Assembly: GCA_934433135.1 (NCBI GenBank)
Contig: CAKRZO010000003.1
Coordinates: 113,511 to 177,510, forward strand
Origin: an uncultured Acetatifactor sp.
Lineage (GTDB): Bacteria > Bacillota > Clostridia > Lachnospirales > Lachnospiraceae
Length of the DNA: 64,000 nucleotides
Reading direction: 5' to 3'
This document shows, piece after piece, positions 1,797 through 63,217 of the stretch (position 1 is its first letter; each line of letters opens with the position of its first letter). The translations under genes and the position numbers were made by a program. Below the pieces are notes generated by a model. That model was not told the DNA's origin. It saw only the letters and a list, made by a program, of their open reading frames with translations, and did no database searches.

Positions 1797-1845
1797 AAAT
1801 AACTGCCGGATATTCCGGCATAAAATTGTCCTGTAAAATATAAAA

Positions 1846-2048
1846 TGATATCAGGGTCAAAAGGTCAAAAAGCCGTTCGTGCTTGCACGATTAGGCTTTT
1901 GAACTTGGGACCCGTCAAACATGAGGAAGTAGCGATTTACGCAGTAAATCAGCGGATTCCGAATGTTTTAGAATTGCGGGAGCTGCTTTGCAGCGGAGCA
2001 ATTCGTGATATCAAATGATGGGCAAAATACCTTTTGACCCTCATATCA
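1846..2048 (+). mobile_element. MITE copy 1 (203 bp, 20-bp TIRs, 5-bp TSD TAAAA)
   Basis: TIRs are TGATATCAGGGTCAAAAGGT and ACCTTTTGACCCTCATATCA. Flanked by TAAAA at 1841-1845 and 2049-2053. No ORF inside. Internal nested hairpins. Confidence 0.8.
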
Positions 2049-2058
2049 TAAAATTACA

Positions 2059-2871
2059 TCATGAAAAATATAACGCATACTTTCTTTTTCTTTCTAATAC
2101 CACCGTTTTTACTCTGCTGAGAATATCGGAAGGATACCAGTCTTTTAACGTTGCAAATGTGTTCTCGATACCGGAATTGGGGTATCCAAGATGTAATCCG
2201 ATTCCATACAAGCTTTCCGCCGCGTCAACCTGTTCATCAAAAGAAATCGAAAATGGCTTTGCTTTTACAGAATTTATCAGTTTATAAATATCTTTCTCCA
2301 ACGGATAATCATTCAGGTCTGACAAAAGAGAAAGTCCGTTGTCAAAATACGGGCAAAATCTGTACGCTTTTGTGCTTTCCTCTCTGATGACTGCGATATT
2401 GTTGGTATGTCTGTCTTCATTGAGAAACAACGCATCCATTTCCAGCATGGCAGTCAGATACTTATCGAAATTTTCCAGACCCGTTACCGCTTCTGTAAAA
2501 TCTACGGTATACTTAACTCTTTCCGCGATATCCTTCATTTTGGACAATTGATCTGCAAGCCCCACGCCGAAATACGAACGGTGGAGCTTTTCCAGCGTAA
2601 TGACAGTCTCGTTATCTTTCTTAAAGTTCGTGCTTACACATCCATTTACAACTTCCTTATCCGTACGAATTTTTACCGGTTCATACCGGACATAGTTTGT
2701 TATATTTGACTTTTTCAGCAATTCTGAAACAATCACTTCCGAAAGGGCTTCATAGCCCATATAATCGGCTTTATACCACTCTTCATTGAAATACCACTTT
2801 AACTGGTCGCCCCTGGATGTATGATTCTGGTTGGAAACTCTCTGTATTCCGATGCTATTAAACGTTTTCAT
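2059..2871 (-). CDS. HipA-like Ser/Thr kinase core (HipT-like toxin)
   Basis: Gly-rich loop SIGIQRVS at the N-terminus. Catalytic motif LNEDRHTNN (D-x-H-x-x-N). Mg-binding FDNG. These match the HipA C-terminal kinase fold. 270 aa. Confidence 0.75.
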   Translation of the reverse strand: MKTFNSIGIQRVSNQNHTSRGDQLKWYFNEEWYKADYMGYEALSEVIVSELLKKSNITNYVRYEPVKIRTDKEVVNGCVSTNFKKDNETVITLEKLHRSYFGVGLADQLSKMKDIAERVKYTVDFTEAVTGLENFDKYLTAMLEMDALFLNEDRHTNNIAVIREESTKAYRFCPYFDNGLSLLSDLNDYPLEKDIYKLINSVKAKPFSISFDEQVDAAESLYGIGLHLGYPNSGIENTFATLKDWYPSDILSRVKTVVLERKRKYALYFS

Positions 2872-2877
2872 TGTCGA

Positions 2878-3489
2878 TTATTTCATCCCCTTTCCATTAT
2901 AATATCGGAACTCCATGTGCATATTATCGTCAACCATTCTTCCCTGTGTTTTTTCCACAATCTGCAGCGGATCGTAGGAATCCAGGTTTAATTCCTTTAA
3001 AATCTCTTTCATCCCGCATCTCGTTTTCGGGAAGCACCGATCCTCCAAAAAGATTTCAAAATCCTCCCACGTAGGATTTTCCTTCACGCCAAATGCCCTG
3101 TGAATCATGTCATCTGTCCGGTTTTCAATTTCAATAACCTGATCCAGAAAATTGATATAAATGATCGTACATATCTTGTTTCCGTACATATACCGGATCT
3201 GCATCGGGAACTGCCTGTCGCATGGTCTGTTTATGCTCCGTGCAATCACCTGTCTTGAAGTACCGTATTTTTCGGCAAGATGAGCCATGGTTTCTCCGTT
3301 CGCCAGCTGCTTCTTAATCGCTTCAATATCAAGATCAGACAGTCTTCTCTTTCTTCCGGCATTGCGGATATTTTTCGCATGGATGGACTGCGCTATTTTT
3401 TTCAGTTCCTCCACATCGTCCGTTTTAAATAATTCCTTACAAAGCAATCTGTAATCGGTAGCCATTTTCGTCCCCTCATTTGATATCAC
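2878..3489 (-). CDS. HTH (Hin/resolvase-like) fused to a HipA N-subdomain-1 (HipS-like); putative antitoxin/regulator
   Basis: HTH is LSDLDIEAIKKQLANGETMAHLAEKYGTSRQVIARSI. The C-terminal FLEDRCFPK...DPLQIVEKTQGRMVDD resembles the HipA N-terminal FFDNLLPD...DLLSEIGRD block. It is 7 bp upstream of the kinase gene. Confidence 0.6.
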   Translation of the reverse strand: MISNEGTKMATDYRLLCKELFKTDDVEELKKIAQSIHAKNIRNAGRKRRLSDLDIEAIKKQLANGETMAHLAEKYGTSRQVIARSINRPCDRQFPMQIRYMYGNKICTIIYINFLDQVIEIENRTDDMIHRAFGVKENPTWEDFEIFLEDRCFPKTRCGMKEILKELNLDSYDPLQIVEKTQGRMVDDNMHMEFRYYNGKGMK

Positions 3490-23170: not shown

Positions 23171-23317
23171 GGAATAATGTATTCCAAACCCTGTGTAACA
23201 CTACCTTACTTCTTATCGCTTCCTCTATTCTATCTTCTGTCTCCCCAAAAAGTCAATAGCATACCGGTTTCTCAATAAAGATTTCAGATAAAGGGGCACT
23301 GTACACATGCAATGTCA

Positions 23318-23520
23318 TGATATCAGGGTCAAAAGGTCGAAAAGCCGTTCGTGCTTGCACGATGAGGCTTTTGACCTTGGGACCCGTCAAACATGAGGAA
23401 GTAGCGATTTACGCAGTAAATCAGCGGATTCCGAATGTTTTAGAATTGCGGGAGCTGCTTTGCAGCGGAGCAATTCGTGATATCAAATGAGGGGCAAAAT
23501 ACCTTTTGACCCTCATATCA
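23318..23520 (+). mobile_element. MITE copy 2 (203 bp, about 98% identical to copy 1, TSD TGTCA)
   Basis: Same TIRs as copy 1. Flanking TGTCA at 23313-23317 and 23521-23525. Confidence 0.8.
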
Positions 23521-23656
23521 TGTCATTTAGTTAAGGGTTAAACCCAAATCTTTCAAAAAAATGGAATCCTGTTTATCTCTGCCACAAACAACCTGCACCA
23601 CCTCCTCAAAATGGGTATAAAAATACCACCGGTCTGTTGACTGGTGGTGTCTACTC

Positions 23657-30240: not shown

Positions 30241-30276
30241 GAGGCAAAGAGAAATTTGCGCAGGTGATTTTTCACA
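30241..30276 (+). repeat. Partial (5' half) copy of the 110-bp hairpin element
   Basis: cgcgaggaggcaaagagaaatttgcgcaggtgatttttcac versus 59641-59685 (cgcgaggcggcgatgagaaattcgcgcaggcgatttttcat). Confidence 0.6.
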
Positions 30277-30431: not shown

Positions 30432-32159
30432 TTGGTTCAAAGCCAGGATCGGAAATACTGCAAATTAGGATACAAGGGAAGATCCTGTGACGAGAATCTA
30501 TATTTTGCGAGGAGGAGCCCATGCATGGTTAAGCAGAGTCAAAAAACAGGAATATTGGTAGCTGTGCTGGTCATCTGTGCTGTCCTGGCTCGCATTTCAG
30601 GAAAATTTGATGTTCTTCCCACACCGTTTGGCCTGGTTCGCGCGATGATTTATATCGGTCTGTATATTGGCTGGGGACTCTCCGTCAGCCATCGCATTTT
30701 ACCAATAAGAGTGCGCTGCTATATGATCGGTATTTCATTACTGACCGTTTTCTGGTTTGTTATACAGTCAGTAAAATATTTTTTTGTGGCTGATCCTGCT
30801 CTGATCCGGAATCTATGGTATTGGTACTATTGTCCTATGCTGTTCATACCCCTTTTTTCCGTGTTTGTTTCCCTGTCTCTGGGTAAGCCGGAAAACTTCC
30901 ATTTACCGAAATGGTCAAGGCTGTTATATCTTCCCACCCTGCTACTTCTGCTGTTGGTGCTGACAAATGATTTCCACCAGCTCGTTTTTTTCTTTCCGGC
31001 AGGAGTGGTTTGGAGCGATACACATAAGGTCTATGCGTACGGATATTATTTTGTTATCGGATGGGAAATTACCTGTGCACTGACCGCATTTGTGATTATG
31101 CTCATCAAATGCCGTGTGACACAGAGAAAAAAATACCTGCCGGCGCTTCTGCTGTCCTGCTCCATCATATACGCATTTATCTACGCCAGCGGAGCCAGGT
31201 GGATGCAGGTGATAGGAGGAGATATTACCGCAGTGCAATGCCTGCTGTTTACCGCAATGCTGGAAAGCTGCATCCGGTGCGGATTGATCCAGGCCAATAC
31301 CGGCTATGTCGAGTTATTTGAAGCAGGAACCTTCCGTGCCCAGATTGCCGATAATGACCATAAAGTTCGTTATGCCTCTGCAGAGGCATCAGTGCTTTCT
31401 GAACAAACTATGTGTGCAGCAGAGGAAGGCTCTTTCCATCTTGACAAACATACCTTGCTGAAAAGTTACCCCATCCAGGGCGGTCATGTGTATTGGCAGG
31501 AAGATATCACCGACTTCTCCGTCCTGCTTGATAAGCTGGAGGAAAACAGAGCGAAAATTGCTGAGCACAATCATCTGGAACAGGAGAATTATCGAATCAG
31601 GCTGAAAATTCATACCCTACGGGAACAGAATCGCCTCTATGATCTCCTGCAGGAAGAAACCGCCCATCAGATCAATTTGCTGAACAACCTGTTTTTCCGA
31701 TATAATGAAGAAGAAAATCCGGAAAAGCGCCATAACCTGCTTGCCAGAATTACTGTAATTGGCACTTACATAAAGCGCAGAGGCAATCTGCTCTTTATCC
31801 GTGAAAAAAGTGAAACCACCGATTCCGGAGAACTGGCTTTATGCATGGAAGAATCCTTTGCAAATTTGAAGTTAATGGGCGTAGAATGTGAGGCTAATAT
31901 TCCGAAAGGCTGCAAAATCTTTACCCGGGATGCGATTTTAGTCTATGACTTTTTTGAAAAAATAATTGAGACTGCCATAGCTGATTTGCGCTTTGTTTGG
32001 TTGAAAGCGCGTATTCTTACCGATTCGATCATCCTCCGTATGGAGGTGGAGTGCGAAAGCTCTCTTGTAGATCTTCAGGATATTTGTGAAAGCTGCTCCT
32101 TTGAGGATGGCGTATGGCGCCTTATCCTCCGCATCGGGAAGGCAGGTGAACCACTGTGA
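30432..32159 (+). CDS. Polytopic membrane sensor protein with degenerate HisKA_3/HATPase-like C-terminus (putative pseudo-kinase or co-sensor)
   Basis: About 7 TM segments, then an H-box-like block YRIRLKIHTLREQ but no clear N/G boxes. The likely start is ATG 30521/30525 after RBS GAGGAGG. The 3' end overlaps the HK start (GTGA). Confidence 0.55.
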   Translation: MVQSQDRKYCKLGYKGRSCDENLYFARRSPCMVKQSQKTGILVAVLVICAVLARISGKFDVLPTPFGLVRAMIYIGLYIGWGLSVSHRILPIRVRCYMIGISLLTVFWFVIQSVKYFFVADPALIRNLWYWYYCPMLFIPLFSVFVSLSLGKPENFHLPKWSRLLYLPTLLLLLLVLTNDFHQLVFFFPAGVVWSDTHKVYAYGYYFVIGWEITCALTAFVIMLIKCRVTQRKKYLPALLLSCSIIYAFIYASGARWMQVIGGDITAVQCLLFTAMLESCIRCGLIQANTGYVELFEAGTFRAQIADNDHKVRYASAEASVLSEQTMCAAEEGSFHLDKHTLLKSYPIQGGHVYWQEDITDFSVLLDKLEENRAKIAEHNHLEQENYRIRLKIHTLREQNRLYDLLQEETAHQINLLNNLFFRYNEEENPEKRHNLLARITVIGTYIKRRGNLLFIREKSETTDSGELALCMEESFANLKLMGVECEANIPKGCKIFTRDAILVYDFFEKIIETAIADLRFVWLKARILTDSIILRMEVECESSLVDLQDICESCSFEDGVWRLILRIGKAGEPL

Positions 32160-51273: not shown

Positions 51274-51334
51274 GTATTTAATTCTCCGTTCTACTGACCT
51301 TTTGACGTCAGCAGGCTATGATGAACTTCTTCAT

Positions 51335-51368
51335 GTTTGACCTTTTGACCCAGGTATCAGGTTATGTA
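51335..51368. mobile_element. Solo-end fragment of the MITE family (TTTGACCTTTTGACCCAGGTATCAGG)
   Basis: Matches the reverse complement of the MITE 5' TIR (GACCTTTTGACCCTGATATCA). A further partial GACCTTTTGAC lies at about 51295. Confidence 0.45.
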
Positions 51369-52029: not shown

Positions 52030-52067
52030 CGTATCACCATTCCTTTCTTAACATGAATTCTTACTTC

Positions 52068-52176
52068 TGAGCGGCTTTGCCGCGAAGAGACGAAGAGAAA
52101 TTCGCGCAGGCAATTTCTCTTTCTTCTGCCGTCAAAGCAATTTGTTTTCGCTCAGAAACAAATTGCGATTTTTCAC
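52068..52176 (+). repeat. 110-bp three-hairpin intergenic element, copy A
   Basis: Three hairpins: GCGGCtttGCCGC; GAGAAATTcgcgcaggcAATTTCTC; GCAATTTGTTTtcgctcagAAACAAATTGC. Confidence 0.65.
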
Positions 52177-52310: not shown

Positions 52311-54107
52311 ATGGCAAAAGAATTACCAAAGCGAAGTGAAGTTGCCGTAGAATTCACCTGGAATCTGGCGGATATGTATCCGGATGTTGCCGCATGGGAA
52401 GCGGAACTTACCCGCATTCAGGAGCTGGCCGCCGTTTTAGAGAAAATGGAAGGCAAAGTGGGAGAAAGTCCCGCATCCTTATTAAAAACACTGGAAAGTA
52501 TGGCAGCTATGAACCAAAAGCTGGATCTGGCTTTTAACTATGCTACCCGTTTAAGCGATGAGGATACCAAAAATACCAAACACCAGGCTATGGTTCAGAA
52601 GATCTTCGGTCTCTATTCCGATGTTTCCAGCCGTCTGGCTTTCTTTGAGCCGGAAGTCCTGGCTATGGATCCGGAAACTTTGGAAGATTTCTATGCAAAA
52701 GAGCCGGCACTTTCCTTATACCGCAAACAGATCGAAGAAATCGTACGTCTTAAGGCTCACTGCCTGAGTACGGAAATGGAAAAAATGCTGGCCATGACCG
52801 CTGAAATTTCCAAAAATCCCAGCAACATTTACTCGATTTTCTCCAACTCCGATATGCAGTTCCCGGAAGTGGAAGATGAAAACGGGGAAATGGTGAGAAT
52901 TACCCATGGCAGATTTGTTCCGCTGGAAGAGTCCGCTGACCGCCGTGTCAGAAAAGAAACTTTCGAAAAGCTCTATCATACCTACCAACAGTACCAGAAT
53001 ACTCTGGCAGCCGTTTACAGCGGGCAGGTAAAACAGCTGATTTTCCATGCGAAAGCAAGAAAATACAACTCTACCCTGGAAGCAGCCGTAGACCGCAACA
53101 ACGTTTCTCCCAAGGTGTACGAGAATCTGGTTGCCACCATTAATGCCAACCTGGATAAGATGCATCATTATGTGCGTCTGCGCAAAAAATATCTGGGCGT
53201 AGAAGAATTGCACATGTATGATATTTATACTCCCATGCTTCCGGACTTTGCAAAGGAAATCAGCTTTGAAGAAGCAAAAGAGACCGTTTTGAAGGCTCTG
53301 GCTCCTTTGGGTGAAGACTATGTAAAAGTGGTAAAGGAAGGCTTTGACAACCGTTGGATCGATGTTTATGAAAATGAAGGCAAGAGAAGCGGCGCCTATT
53401 CCGCAGGTTCTTTCGGCACACATCCTTATGTGCTCTTAAACTACAACGGTTCCCTGGACAATATGTTTACTTTAGCCCATGAGATGGGACATGCCATGCA
53501 TTCTTATCTCTCCAATTCCACCCAGCCTTATATTTATTCCGATTACAAGATTTTCGTTGCAGAAGTGGCTTCCACCTGTAATGAAGTTCTTTTGATGGAA
53601 TATCTGCTGAAAAATACCACCGACCCCAATGAGCGTGCTTATTTGTTAAATCATTATCTGGACAGCTTCAAGGGTACGGTTTATCGTCAGACGATGTTTG
53701 CGGAATATGAAATGAAGACCAACCAGATGGCGGAAGCAGGCGAGAGCCTGACTGCAGATGTGCTGAATCAGATTTATCATGAACTGAACTGCAAATATTA
53801 CGGACCGGATATGGTATCCGACACCGAAATTGCGGTAGAATGGGCAAGAATCCCTCATTTCTACTACAATTTCTACGTATATCAATACGCAACCGGATTT
53901 TCCAGCGCTGTCACCATTGCCCGTAACATCTTAAAGAACGGGGCTCCTGCTGTAGAAGCTTATAAGAAATTCTTATCCGGCGGCTGTTCTCTGCCCCCTG
54001 TAGAACTCTTAAAGATCGCAGGCGTGGATCTGGAGACTCCCGCTCCTATTCAGGATGCTTTAAATGTCTTCGGTGAAATTCTGGACGAAATGGAACAGCT
54101 CGGCTAA
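52311..54107 (+). CDS. pepF: Oligoendopeptidase F (M3B)
   Basis: HEMGHAMH zinc motif. 598 aa. RBS AAAGGAGG. Confidence 0.9.
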   Translation: MAKELPKRSEVAVEFTWNLADMYPDVAAWEAELTRIQELAAVLEKMEGKVGESPASLLKTLESMAAMNQKLDLAFNYATRLSDEDTKNTKHQAMVQKIFGLYSDVSSRLAFFEPEVLAMDPETLEDFYAKEPALSLYRKQIEEIVRLKAHCLSTEMEKMLAMTAEISKNPSNIYSIFSNSDMQFPEVEDENGEMVRITHGRFVPLEESADRRVRKETFEKLYHTYQQYQNTLAAVYSGQVKQLIFHAKARKYNSTLEAAVDRNNVSPKVYENLVATINANLDKMHHYVRLRKKYLGVEELHMYDIYTPMLPDFAKEISFEEAKETVLKALAPLGEDYVKVVKEGFDNRWIDVYENEGKRSGAYSAGSFGTHPYVLLNYNGSLDNMFTLAHEMGHAMHSYLSNSTQPYIYSDYKIFVAEVASTCNEVLLMEYLLKNTTDPNERAYLLNHYLDSFKGTVYRQTMFAEYEMKTNQMAEAGESLTADVLNQIYHELNCKYYGPDMVSDTEIAVEWARIPHFYYNFYVYQYATGFSSAVTIARNILKNGAPAVEAYKKFLSGGCSLPPVELLKIAGVDLETPAPIQDALNVFGEILDEMEQLG

Positions 54108-56461: not shown

Positions 56462-57343
56462 CTACTCTCCGCAGAGCGCCTGATAGATCTCTCTTTTTCC
56501 TACTCCGCGGTCCTTTGCCACGGCTTTCATGGCTTCCTTGCGTTCCATTCCCTGCTCTTCATAATAAGCCATGTGTTCTTCTATCGTCATGGTCTCCCAG
56601 GAGGCAATTTTTTCTTTCTTTTTCTCTGCAAAGCTCTTACCTTCCACTACCAGCACATATTCTCCCCTGGGTTCCCGTTCCCGAAACACTTCCAAAACCT
56701 GATCCAGAGTAGTGGGCAGAACCTCCTCGAACTTTTTCGTCAGTTCCCTGCATAAGGTAATCTTACGATTGCCGAGAGCCTCCCTTAATTCTTCCAATGT
56801 CCTTACCAAATGATGGGGCGCTTCATACAAAATCATGGTTCTGGTCTCCTGTGCAAGTTCTTCCAGGATCTGTTTTTTCTCTTTCTTTTCCGCAGGGAGG
56901 AATCCTTCAAAGCAAAATCGTCTGGTATTTAAACCGGACAACGTCAGGGCCGTAATACAGGCAGCGGCACCCGGAAGGGACGTCACACACACCCCGTTTT
57001 CCTGACACATCCGCACCAACACTTCTCCCGGATCGGAAATAGCCGGGGTTCCGGCATCCGTAATCAGGGCAATATTTTGCCCGTCCAGCATCTGCTGTAC
57101 CAGCTGTTTTGCTTTTTCCACTTTATTGTACTCATGATAACTGGTCATCGGCGTATGAATCTCAAAGTGATTCAGCAGCTTGATGCTGTTTCTGGTATCT
57201 TCCGCGGCAATCACATCCACCTGCTGCAAAGTCTCCACGACCCGCGGCGACATATCGCCTAAATTTCCGATGGGAGTTGCACATAAATAAAGTTTTCCTG
57301 CCATATTTTTACCGTATCCCTTCTCTTCGGTCCTGATTCCCAA
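56462..57343 (-). CDS. rsmI: 16S rRNA (cytidine1402-2'-O)-methyltransferase
   Basis: LYLCATPIGNLGD, tetrapyrrole-methylase fold. Start at the internal Met. Confidence 0.85.
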   Translation of the reverse strand: MGIRTEEKGYGKNMAGKLYLCATPIGNLGDMSPRVVETLQQVDVIAAEDTRNSIKLLNHFEIHTPMTSYHEYNKVEKAKQLVQQMLDGQNIALITDAGTPAISDPGEVLVRMCQENGVCVTSLPGAAACITALTLSGLNTRRFCFEGFLPAEKKEKKQILEELAQETRTMILYEAPHHLVRTLEELREALGNRKITLCRELTKKFEEVLPTTLDQVLEVFREREPRGEYVLVVEGKSFAEKKKEKIASWETMTIEEHMAYYEEQGMERKEAMKAVAKDRGVGKREIYQALCGE

Positions 57344-57400
57344 GCCTTTTTATAACCAAAGAGAAATCATCCGTGCAAATTTCTCTTCGATCCCGCTTCC

Positions 57401-59612: not shown

Positions 59613-59629
59613 CTATTAACCTCATTTCC

Positions 59630-59723
59630 GAGCGATTTCATCGCGAGGCGGCGATGAGAAATTCGCGCAGGCGATTTTTCATCTGCCATAAAAGCAATTT
59701 GTTTTCGCTCAGGAACAAATTGC
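59630..59723 (+). repeat. 110-bp three-hairpin intergenic element, copy B
   Basis: The first stem is GCGATttcATCGC here versus GCGGC/GCCGC in copy A, which is a compensatory change. Confidence 0.65.
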
Positions 59724-59845
59724 TATAAGAAAAATCAGCGTTTCAACGTGATTTTTCTTATTGGCCTCCATATTTCATACAATGCACTTCCCCAGTATAC
59801 CACAATCCTTTTTTTCACACAAGTTCCGCTGCGGATTCCTTCCTT

Positions 59846-63045: not shown

Positions 63046-63217
63046 TGTGATGCCAGGCGGATTGCTCCGCGCTCTGCGCTCCCGCAATCCTACAAACATT
63101 CGGATTCCGCTGATTTGCTTTGCAAATCGCTCCATCCTCATGTTTGGGCGGGTCTCAAACTCATAAGCCTCCTCATGCAAGCATGATCGGCTTATGGAGC
63201 TTTCGACCCTGGCATCA
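63046..63217 (-). mobile_element. Diverged MITE-family copy 3 (about 172 bp) in the 5' leader of the L,D-transpeptidase gene
   Basis: Colinear with the 203-bp MITE. Five hairpins are preserved by compensatory substitutions. Its TIRs are GTGATGCCAGGG and CCCTGGCATCAC. It overlaps the ansA stop codon. Confidence 0.6.

Follow-up and report, generated by a model that had tools for sequence, protein, structure and literature searches.

A 203-bp repeat of Lachnospiraceae with terminal inverted repeats and target-site duplications has the Clostridiales-1 RNA as its body

Results

The locus

The DNA analyzed here, referred to as the window, is a stretch of 64,000 nucleotides of contig CAKRZO010000003.1 (assembly GCA_934433135.1) from an uncultured Acetatifactor sp. 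It contains two complete copies of a 203-bp repeat, a third copy of the RNA that forms the body of the repeat, and a decayed fragment (Table 1). Copy 1 is located between the stop codon of a gene coding for a 270-aa protein and a terminator-like hairpin, with its RNA antisense to the gene, and for this reason it looks like a passive insertion, judging from its position and orientation. Copy 2 is located upstream of a sigma-54 activator gene. The third RNA copy is flanked by an asparaginase-like ORF and an L,D-transpeptidase ORF, all three being on the same strand.

The ORF adjoining copy 1 (2059-2871, minus strand, 270 aa) belongs to no Pfam family, and the ORF beside it (2878-3489, minus strand, 203 aa) gave only a weak match to a resolvase-type HTH. 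Both are found with identical sequence in many gut metagenomes, and a gene for an Mrr-like restriction endonuclease adjoins them. The window also holds a second small repeat family, a hairpin present at four sites (Table 1), with a longer similarity between 52060-52169 and 59621-59726. Its members lie mostly just upstream of same-strand ORFs (30432-32159 and 52311-54107, plus strand; 56462-57343, minus strand). A permissive Rfam scan of this family gave snR83 as the sole match, at chance level (14.5 bits against a gathering threshold of 75, E 0.55); the hairpin may be an operator or leader element that these loci have in common.

Table 1. Features of the 203-bp repeat and of related or accompanying repeats in the window
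Feature	Position	Strand	Evidence or remark
MITE copy 1, complete, 203 bp	1846-2048	+	Read from the sequence; repeat comparison
Clostridiales-1 RNA, copy 1	1846-2013	+	cmscan, 125.1 bits, E 3.7e-28
Left target-site duplication, copy 1, TAAAA	1841-1845	.	Direct reading
Right target-site duplication, copy 1, TAAAA	2049-2053	.	Direct reading
Left TIR of copy 1, TGATATCAGGGTCAAAAGGT, also 5' strand of RNA stems P1 and P2	1846-1865	+	Pattern search, cmscan
3' extension of copy 1, 35 nt beyond the Rfam model, imperfect hairpin and right TIR	2014-2048	+	
Imperfect hairpin arms in the copy 1 extension	2015-2027 and 2032-2044	+	
Right TIR of copy 1, ACCTTTTGACCCTCATATCA	2029-2048	+	
MITE copy 2, 203 bp	23318-23520	+	RNA part 23318-23485
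Clostridiales-1 RNA, copy 2	23318-23485	+	cmscan, 128.9 bits
Left target-site duplication, copy 2, TGTCA	23313-23317	.	Direct reading
Right target-site duplication, copy 2, TGTCA	23521-23525	.	Direct reading
Decayed element fragment, without right end	51297-51359	-	Left-TIR-like TGATACCTGGGTCAAAAGGTC joined to P3-like AAACATGAAGAAGT
TIR-like match heading the decayed fragment	51340-51359	-	Pattern search, repeat finder
Clostridiales-1 RNA, third copy	63048-63217	-	cmscan, 137.4 bits
Inverted match of the element interior, 87%, inside the third RNA copy	63094-63146	-	Repeat finder
Second repeat family, hairpin GAGAAATT-N8-9-AATTTCTC	30247-30273, 52091-52122, 59652-59680	+	
Second repeat family, same hairpin	57358-57389	-	

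Anatomy of the 203-bp repeat

In a preliminary description of this DNA the two 203-bp copies had been read as a MITE, about 98% identical between copies, with 20-bp terminal inverted repeats (TIRs), a separate 5-bp direct repeat around each copy and no coding capacity. This reading was supported throughout by our analysis, but it was incomplete: it had missed that the body is Clostridiales-1 RNA, that the left TIR overlaps stems P1 and P2, and that the window holds a third RNA copy and a decayed fragment. The copies differ at 4 of the 203 positions, and in both of them the TIRs are complementary at 19 of 20 positions. With up to three mismatches allowed, we counted 5 occurrences of the terminal 20-mer in the window; 100 shuffles gave an expectation of 0.00. 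Beyond the flanking 5-mers the sequences around copies 1 and 2 are unrelated, contradicting a segmental duplication, in which the copies would always share their flanks. The sole ORF in the 203 bp, of 57 aa and running across each copy, is regarded as non-coding because it lies inside a covarying RNA structure. The element is thus short (less than about 500 bp) and has no transposase gene, as is typical of a MITE. The parent IS had been placed outside the window. Indeed, a search of the 64 kb gave no further pair of TIRs and no other IS bounded by such ends, and the ORFs that flank the copies had no transposase domain.

The body of the repeat is the Clostridiales-1 RNA

The whole window was scanned against Rfam with cmscan at gathering thresholds (48 bits for RF01699, Clostridiales-1). 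Exactly three matches were obtained, all to RF01699 and all full-length (model positions 1-166 of 166). Bases 1-168 of the element correspond to this RNA, with four stems, and since the match starts at base 1 the left TIR also provides the 5' strand of both P1 and P2. Clostridiales-1 was described as a large four-stem motif, very common in human-gut DNA and found in several Clostridiales, with significant covariation, probably not cis-regulatory and with a function not known (Weinberg et al. 2010, PMC2864571). Mobility, inverted termini and target duplications are not mentioned in that original description (PMC2864571), and no account linking Clostridiales-1 to mobility was found in the literature searched.

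RNAalifold applied to 60 diverse copies revealed double compensatory changes in 19 of the 31 predicted pairs; one pair, for example, was GC in 25 copies, CG in 16, AU in 11 and UA in 8, and was broken in none. The nucleotides of the internal loops, UGAG/GAAG...CGGA/CGAA and GCGGGAG/CGGAGC, were invariant across the same 60 copies. Stem P1, which was missed by MAFFT/RNAalifold, can be seen both in the alignments made by cmscan and in the paired sequences of the ends. When the full 203 nt were folded, the termini paired with each other at the expense of P1 and P2 (-83 kcal/mol, z -7.3), so that the right end could, according to this prediction, also influence RNA folding if all 203 nt are transcribed. 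No promoter-like site was found upstream of copies 1 or 2, and neither a promoter nor an intrinsic terminator was identified for the element.

The third RNA copy is divergent; neither a right TIR nor a target-site duplication could be recognised in it, and it differs from copies 1 and 2 in a compensatory way (e.g. GAUUUACGCAGUAAAUC versus GAUUUGCAAAGCAAAUC). Like many "bare" relatives, which have no 3' extension, it is located just upstream of a same-strand gene; such copies may be resident genes of ancestral origin or insertions that have become immobile. Two further observations concern the RNA family at large. Tandem head-to-tail arrays of Clostridiales-1 without MITE ends, made of units of approximately 146-170 nt or with a partial second unit, were seen in five loci, one of them from Anaerosporobacter faecicola; this organisation is unlike that of the dispersed copies. 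In addition, a divergent MITE sub-family, seen in nine loci and missed by the RNA-core pattern used in the genome scan described below, differs from the Rfam consensus in P3/P4 in a compensatory way (e.g. ACACCGAG...CGAGGUGU in place of AACAUGAG...CGAAUGUU).

Empty site, spread and target-site duplications

The exact 270-aa protein encoded beside copy 1 was found on 18 public gut-metagenome contigs. The copy 1 site was empty in five of these related contigs, which read GATGTAA-TTTTA-TATTTTACAGG with a single TTTTA, and filled in three alleles, that of the window and two others, where the 203 bp have TTTTA on both sides. This precise empty site, together with the different flanks of the two copies, agrees with the earlier proposal that they inserted independently. 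The copy 2 site was filled in one other contig, and several other contigs of that locus end at or inside the element; such assembly breaks are typical of a dispersed repeat.

The spread of the element was determined by scanning one genome per species with a pattern for the RNA core and metagenomes with a pattern for the right end. The RNA-core pattern matched at least 117 genome loci; among the matches listed almost all were in Lachnospiraceae, several loci occurring in single genomes (many, for example, in Muricomes intestini DSM 29489 and MGYG-HGUT-00092). The right-end pattern matched at least 120 metagenome loci. Many of these relatives share the architecture of the window copies and have flanking repeats of their own, such as TAGCG, TAACC, TAGTA and TAATA.

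Target-site duplications were then counted for 82 distinct elements with both ends, taken from other genomes and metagenomes, using six controls in which the right flank was displaced. At the canonical boundary 37 of the 82 elements were flanked by an exact direct repeat of 5 bp, compared with 0-3 of 82 in the displaced controls, so target-site duplication is general in these relatives; about half of these MITE-like elements have no exact 5-bp repeat, some showing 6-bp repeats or boundaries shifted by 1 nt and some being decayed. Elements of at least 130 bp had the exact duplication in 32 of 58 cases. The duplicated sites were 89% A+T, with T at position 1 in 33 of 37 and A at position 5 in 35 of 37. 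TIRs, a target duplication of fixed length and a presence/absence polymorphism with a precise empty site, the hallmarks of a MITE, were all observed.

Viral contigs were also searched. The RNA-core pattern had no match in them, and a scan with the right TIR returned only one ordinary MITE copy (L120); the matches in the phage collection were unannotated faecal contigs. The first 46 nt or so of the element (the left TIR and the start of P2) were seen on two IMG/VR contigs (L001, 8292-8337; L002, 13585-13630), where three genes for large serine recombinases stand in tandem and the match abuts the start of the third, before diverging into unrelated sequence. We considered whether these matches mark an attachment site or one end of a larger, autonomous element. 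Both contigs stop after a further 0.1-1.1 kb, with no right end or transposase and no Pfam match in the adjacent ORFs; the match is probably a truncated copy, or else it may mark a recombination junction.

Deletion derivatives and mini-elements

Shorter elements of 38-113 bp, bounded by the same ends and many of them with duplications of their own, were found in other loci. Some retain only the P2 hairpin (62-113 bp; e.g. in locus L254, with a TAGCA duplication), and the smallest, of 38-47 bp in seven loci, consist of the two inverted termini alone, an unusually small mobile unit. The right-end module, positions 2014-2048 in copy 1, thus exists elsewhere on its own as mobile mini-elements of 38 bp. 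Since derivatives down to 38 bp carry duplications, insertion does not depend on the RNA in cis, and the RNA is cargo. A match on the Agathobacter rectalis plasmid NZ_CP143948 (L138, 8001-8036), located after a tet-like gene, was examined as a possible autonomous element and proved to be a mini-element.

The empty site, the assembly breaks at copy 2, the spread of the element with its duplications and the deletion derivatives are four independent lines of sequence evidence that the element is mobile.

An IS1182-like insertion sequence with matching ends

In the fetched loci we looked for inverted repeats of the form TGA...TCA that are separated by 0.7-4 kb and have the same 5 bp on either side. 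This search revealed a candidate parent IS of 1902 bp in locus L224 (1652-3553), with TTTTA on both sides, ends TGATGTGAGGGTCGAAAC... and ...CCTTTTGACCCCAACATCA, and subterminal inverted repeats. Thus the IS with matching ends that had been sought outside the window has a candidate, with the same duplication. Its single ORF codes for a protein of 546 aa with DUF772, DDE_Tnp_1 and DDE_Tnp_1_6 domains. One DDE transposase ORF with DUF772 at the N-terminus and DDE_Tnp_1_6 at the C-terminus, with inverted repeats around it, is the layout of the IS1182 family, whose size range includes approximately 1.9 kb. The best NCBIfam model for the transposase was also that of the IS1182 family (NF033551, positions 29-487 of 488), but the score of 140.2 bits is below the curated NCBI cutoff of 270, and the family label is therefore approximate ("IS1182-like"). 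A cluster look-up gave no protein name for the transposase, and a tblastn search of the plasmid collection with it gave no match.

Homologues of the transposase numbered 2798 at E <= 1e-20 and were mostly on contigs of approximately 1.9 kb, as expected for a multi-copy IS that assembles by itself. Further IS copies (L259-L285), which come from three sub-lineages (83%, 79% and 64% identity), are 1893-1934 bp long, and the transposases have 533-546 aa. In all the copies examined a GGGTCAAAAG motif faces inward at either end, at a distance of exactly 8 nt from it. Exact 5-bp duplications (TATCA, TAGTA, TATAA, TAAAA) follow the T...A pattern of the MITE, and three copies have duplications of 6-7 bp; many copies on short metagenome contigs had no visible duplication, which we assume reflects chimeric flanks of a multi-copy repeat.

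The consensus of the left end of the IS (IRL), TGAT(G/A)TTGGGGTCAAAAGGT, resembles the left TIR of the MITE. The right end of L031- and L009-type MITEs has 19-21 nt identical to IRL, and the right end of the window element agrees with the right end (IRR) of the L263-type IS at 16 of 17 positions. The similarity between MITE and IS is restricted to the termini; thus the MITE is not an internal deletion of the IS, and consists of IS-type ends around an unrelated RNA. IS1182-like elements, found outside the window, which itself encodes no transposase of this family, have both the termini and the duplication expected of an autonomous partner. From the terminal sequences we infer that this family probably moves the MITE.

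Other candidate partners were rejected. A pair of ends in locus L254 (4125-5985) encloses galE-like and ilvN-like genes. Solo ends in 16 loci were checked as the ends of a transposon with a transposase, which was found at L224 only; the possibility that L224 was an IS inserted into a mini-MITE was discarded when the search constrained by the target duplication showed a complete IS. An IS30 transposase on the contig of L120 is not a candidate, because IS30 target duplications are of 2-3 bp and thus differ in length. No other transposase-bearing element with these ends was found in approximately 2 Mb of fetched loci.

Discussion

The results are best explained if the 203-bp repeat is a MITE that is moved in trans by a DDE transposase, most likely an IS1182-like one, and that carries a complete Clostridiales-1 RNA as cargo, an interpretation to which we give a probability of about 0.85. 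On this view the element belongs to a MITE family whose body is an already catalogued RNA and for which a candidate parent IS is available. The proposed course of events is as follows. Since the MITE does not move itself, the DDE transposase of the Lachnospiraceae IS of approximately 1.9 kb would be supplied in trans; the IS termini, TGAT(G/A)TTGGGGTCAAAAGG... and ...TTTTGACCCTNNNATCA, match those of the MITE, and the transposase would recognise the ends containing GGGTCAAAAGG and excise or copy the element. Insertion would take place at AT-rich sites with the consensus T-W-N-T-A, where repair of a staggered cut of 5 nt (occasionally 6 nt), a distance suggested by the duplications, would produce the flanking direct repeat. 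The left TIR doubles as the 5' strand of P1 and P2, and the right TIR resides in the 35-nt hairpin module 3' of the RNA. In an RNA lineage with 5' UGAUNNCAGGGUCAAAAGGUC this sequence alone resembles an IS end, and the gain of a 38-bp right-end module may have been what made the unit mobilisable.

Several features of the element would also suit ordinary Clostridiales-1 sRNA genes that were duplicated segmentally or recombined, the 3' inverted repeat being a terminator or a riboswitch-like expression platform. The body is a bona fide structured RNA, the 3' extension forms a hairpin that in a 203-nt transcript can displace P1/P2 by pairing with the first 20 nt, and the many relatives without the extension stand before same-strand genes as copy 3 does. 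However, as a full account this is refuted by the empty site, that is, by a precise presence/absence polymorphism with a duplicated 5-mer, and it does not agree with target-site duplications at dozens of independent sites, with the dispersal, again with duplications, of a hairpin module without any RNA, or with the presence of the same terminal sequences around a transposase gene. Nor is there a U-tract after the hairpin, since the sequence found there is simply that of the target. We therefore regard this explanation as very improbable; the form of it that survives is an added role, in which the right-end hairpin could also act on the transcript. It is equally hard to credit that the four-stem fold is a feature of single-stranded DNA that joins the ends during transposition, Clostridiales-1 having been mis-filed as an RNA gene. 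P1 does pair the extreme left end with sequence beside the right-end module, juxtaposing the termini, and covariation alone cannot separate RNA from single-stranded DNA. On the other hand, the 38-113-bp derivatives without P3 and P4 still transposed, many strongly covarying relatives have no transposon ends at all, and between the ends of the parent IS there is no comparable fold. The substrate of DDE transposases of this superfamily is double-stranded DNA, and the invariant purine-rich internal loops appear to resemble RNA tertiary or protein-binding modules.

The identity of the transposase leaves more room for doubt. TG...CA ends with duplications of about 5 bp are common to several IS families and so are not specific to one, the proposed partnership presupposes IS and MITE in one genome, and their similarity is limited to about 20 nt per end; the MITE might thus be moved by another transposase (e.g. 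of the IS3, IS21, IS481 or Tn7/Mu type), the IS1182-like ends being convergent or acquired from the MITE. We consider this unlikely in view of the 19-21 consecutive identical terminal nucleotides, the GGGTCAAAAGG motif facing inward at both ends of every IS copy examined, the same duplication length and T...A target consensus in IS and MITE, and the failure of the 2 Mb of fetched loci to yield a second transposase-bearing element with these ends.

If the repeat is accepted as a MITE moved in trans, the conservation of its cargo requires comment. Compensatory substitutions have maintained the fold in different lineages, indicating that the RNA is under selection now or was formerly so in master copies, and from this we infer that Clostridiales-1 is functional at the RNA level. 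A bolder and tentative suggestion, which may well prove wrong, is that Clostridiales-1 is a functional RNA spreading in Lachnospiraceae as the cargo of an IS1182-derived MITE, with the fold selected for the benefit of element or host. Were this the case, the RNA might bind protein through its invariant purine-rich internal loops or modulate the partner transposase, the bare copies beside genes would be immobilised, domesticated insertions, and a complex non-coding RNA gene would have spread by cut-and-paste transposition and not by vertical descent.

Rfam has listed Clostridiales-1, an RNA abundant in gut bacteria, since 2010. That a large part of the family is a transposon explains its copy number and scattered positions, and it cautions that not every copy should be taken for an sRNA gene that is expressed. 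Insertions beside regulators, such as copy 2 by the sigma-54 activator gene, may alter expression. The element interrupts the assembly of metagenomes and its presence varies from strain to strain, so that it can be used as a strain marker. The questions raised are whether the RNA affects transposition, which copies are transcribed and what the invariant loops bind.

Comparison with known systems

The copies in the window share with the Clostridiales-1 motif the full covariance model, the four stems, the covariation and the host range of gut Clostridiales/Lachnospiraceae. They differ from it as published in that a large sub-lineage has the 35-nt right-end module and behaves like a transposon. 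The candidate parent resembles the IS1182 family in its single-ORF domain set and best NCBIfam match, and departs from it in a score below the curated cutoff. Full-text literature searches did not find a Lachnospiraceae MITE matching this element.

In function the element is closest to bcr1 of the Bacillus cereus group, a repeat of approximately 155 bp with 5-bp direct repeats that is variable between related strains (Okstad 2004; Klevan 2007; summarised in PMC3184786). According to PMC3184786, bcr1 is transcribed and has a cruciform-like RNA structure kept by compensatory changes, and no partner transposase is named there. Both are thus short Firmicutes elements with 5-bp repeats, variable presence and compensatory changes. 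No sequence relationship between them was seen, however. The element of the window is set apart by its clear 20-nt TIRs, by the existence of a candidate parent IS, and by an RNA that is more complex, with a four-way junction and invariant internal loops.

Correia/NEMIS elements of Neisseria, RUP of pneumococcus and ERIC are likewise small, intergenic and multi-copy, with TIRs and target duplications; they are moved in trans and can fold as RNA when co-transcribed (PMC3184786). The Lachnospiraceae element is like them in size, TIRs, target duplications and number of copies. Those elements, however, fold mainly as one long hairpin formed by the TIRs, whereas the interior of the present one is an independently conserved multi-stem RNA that is also found without transposon ends.
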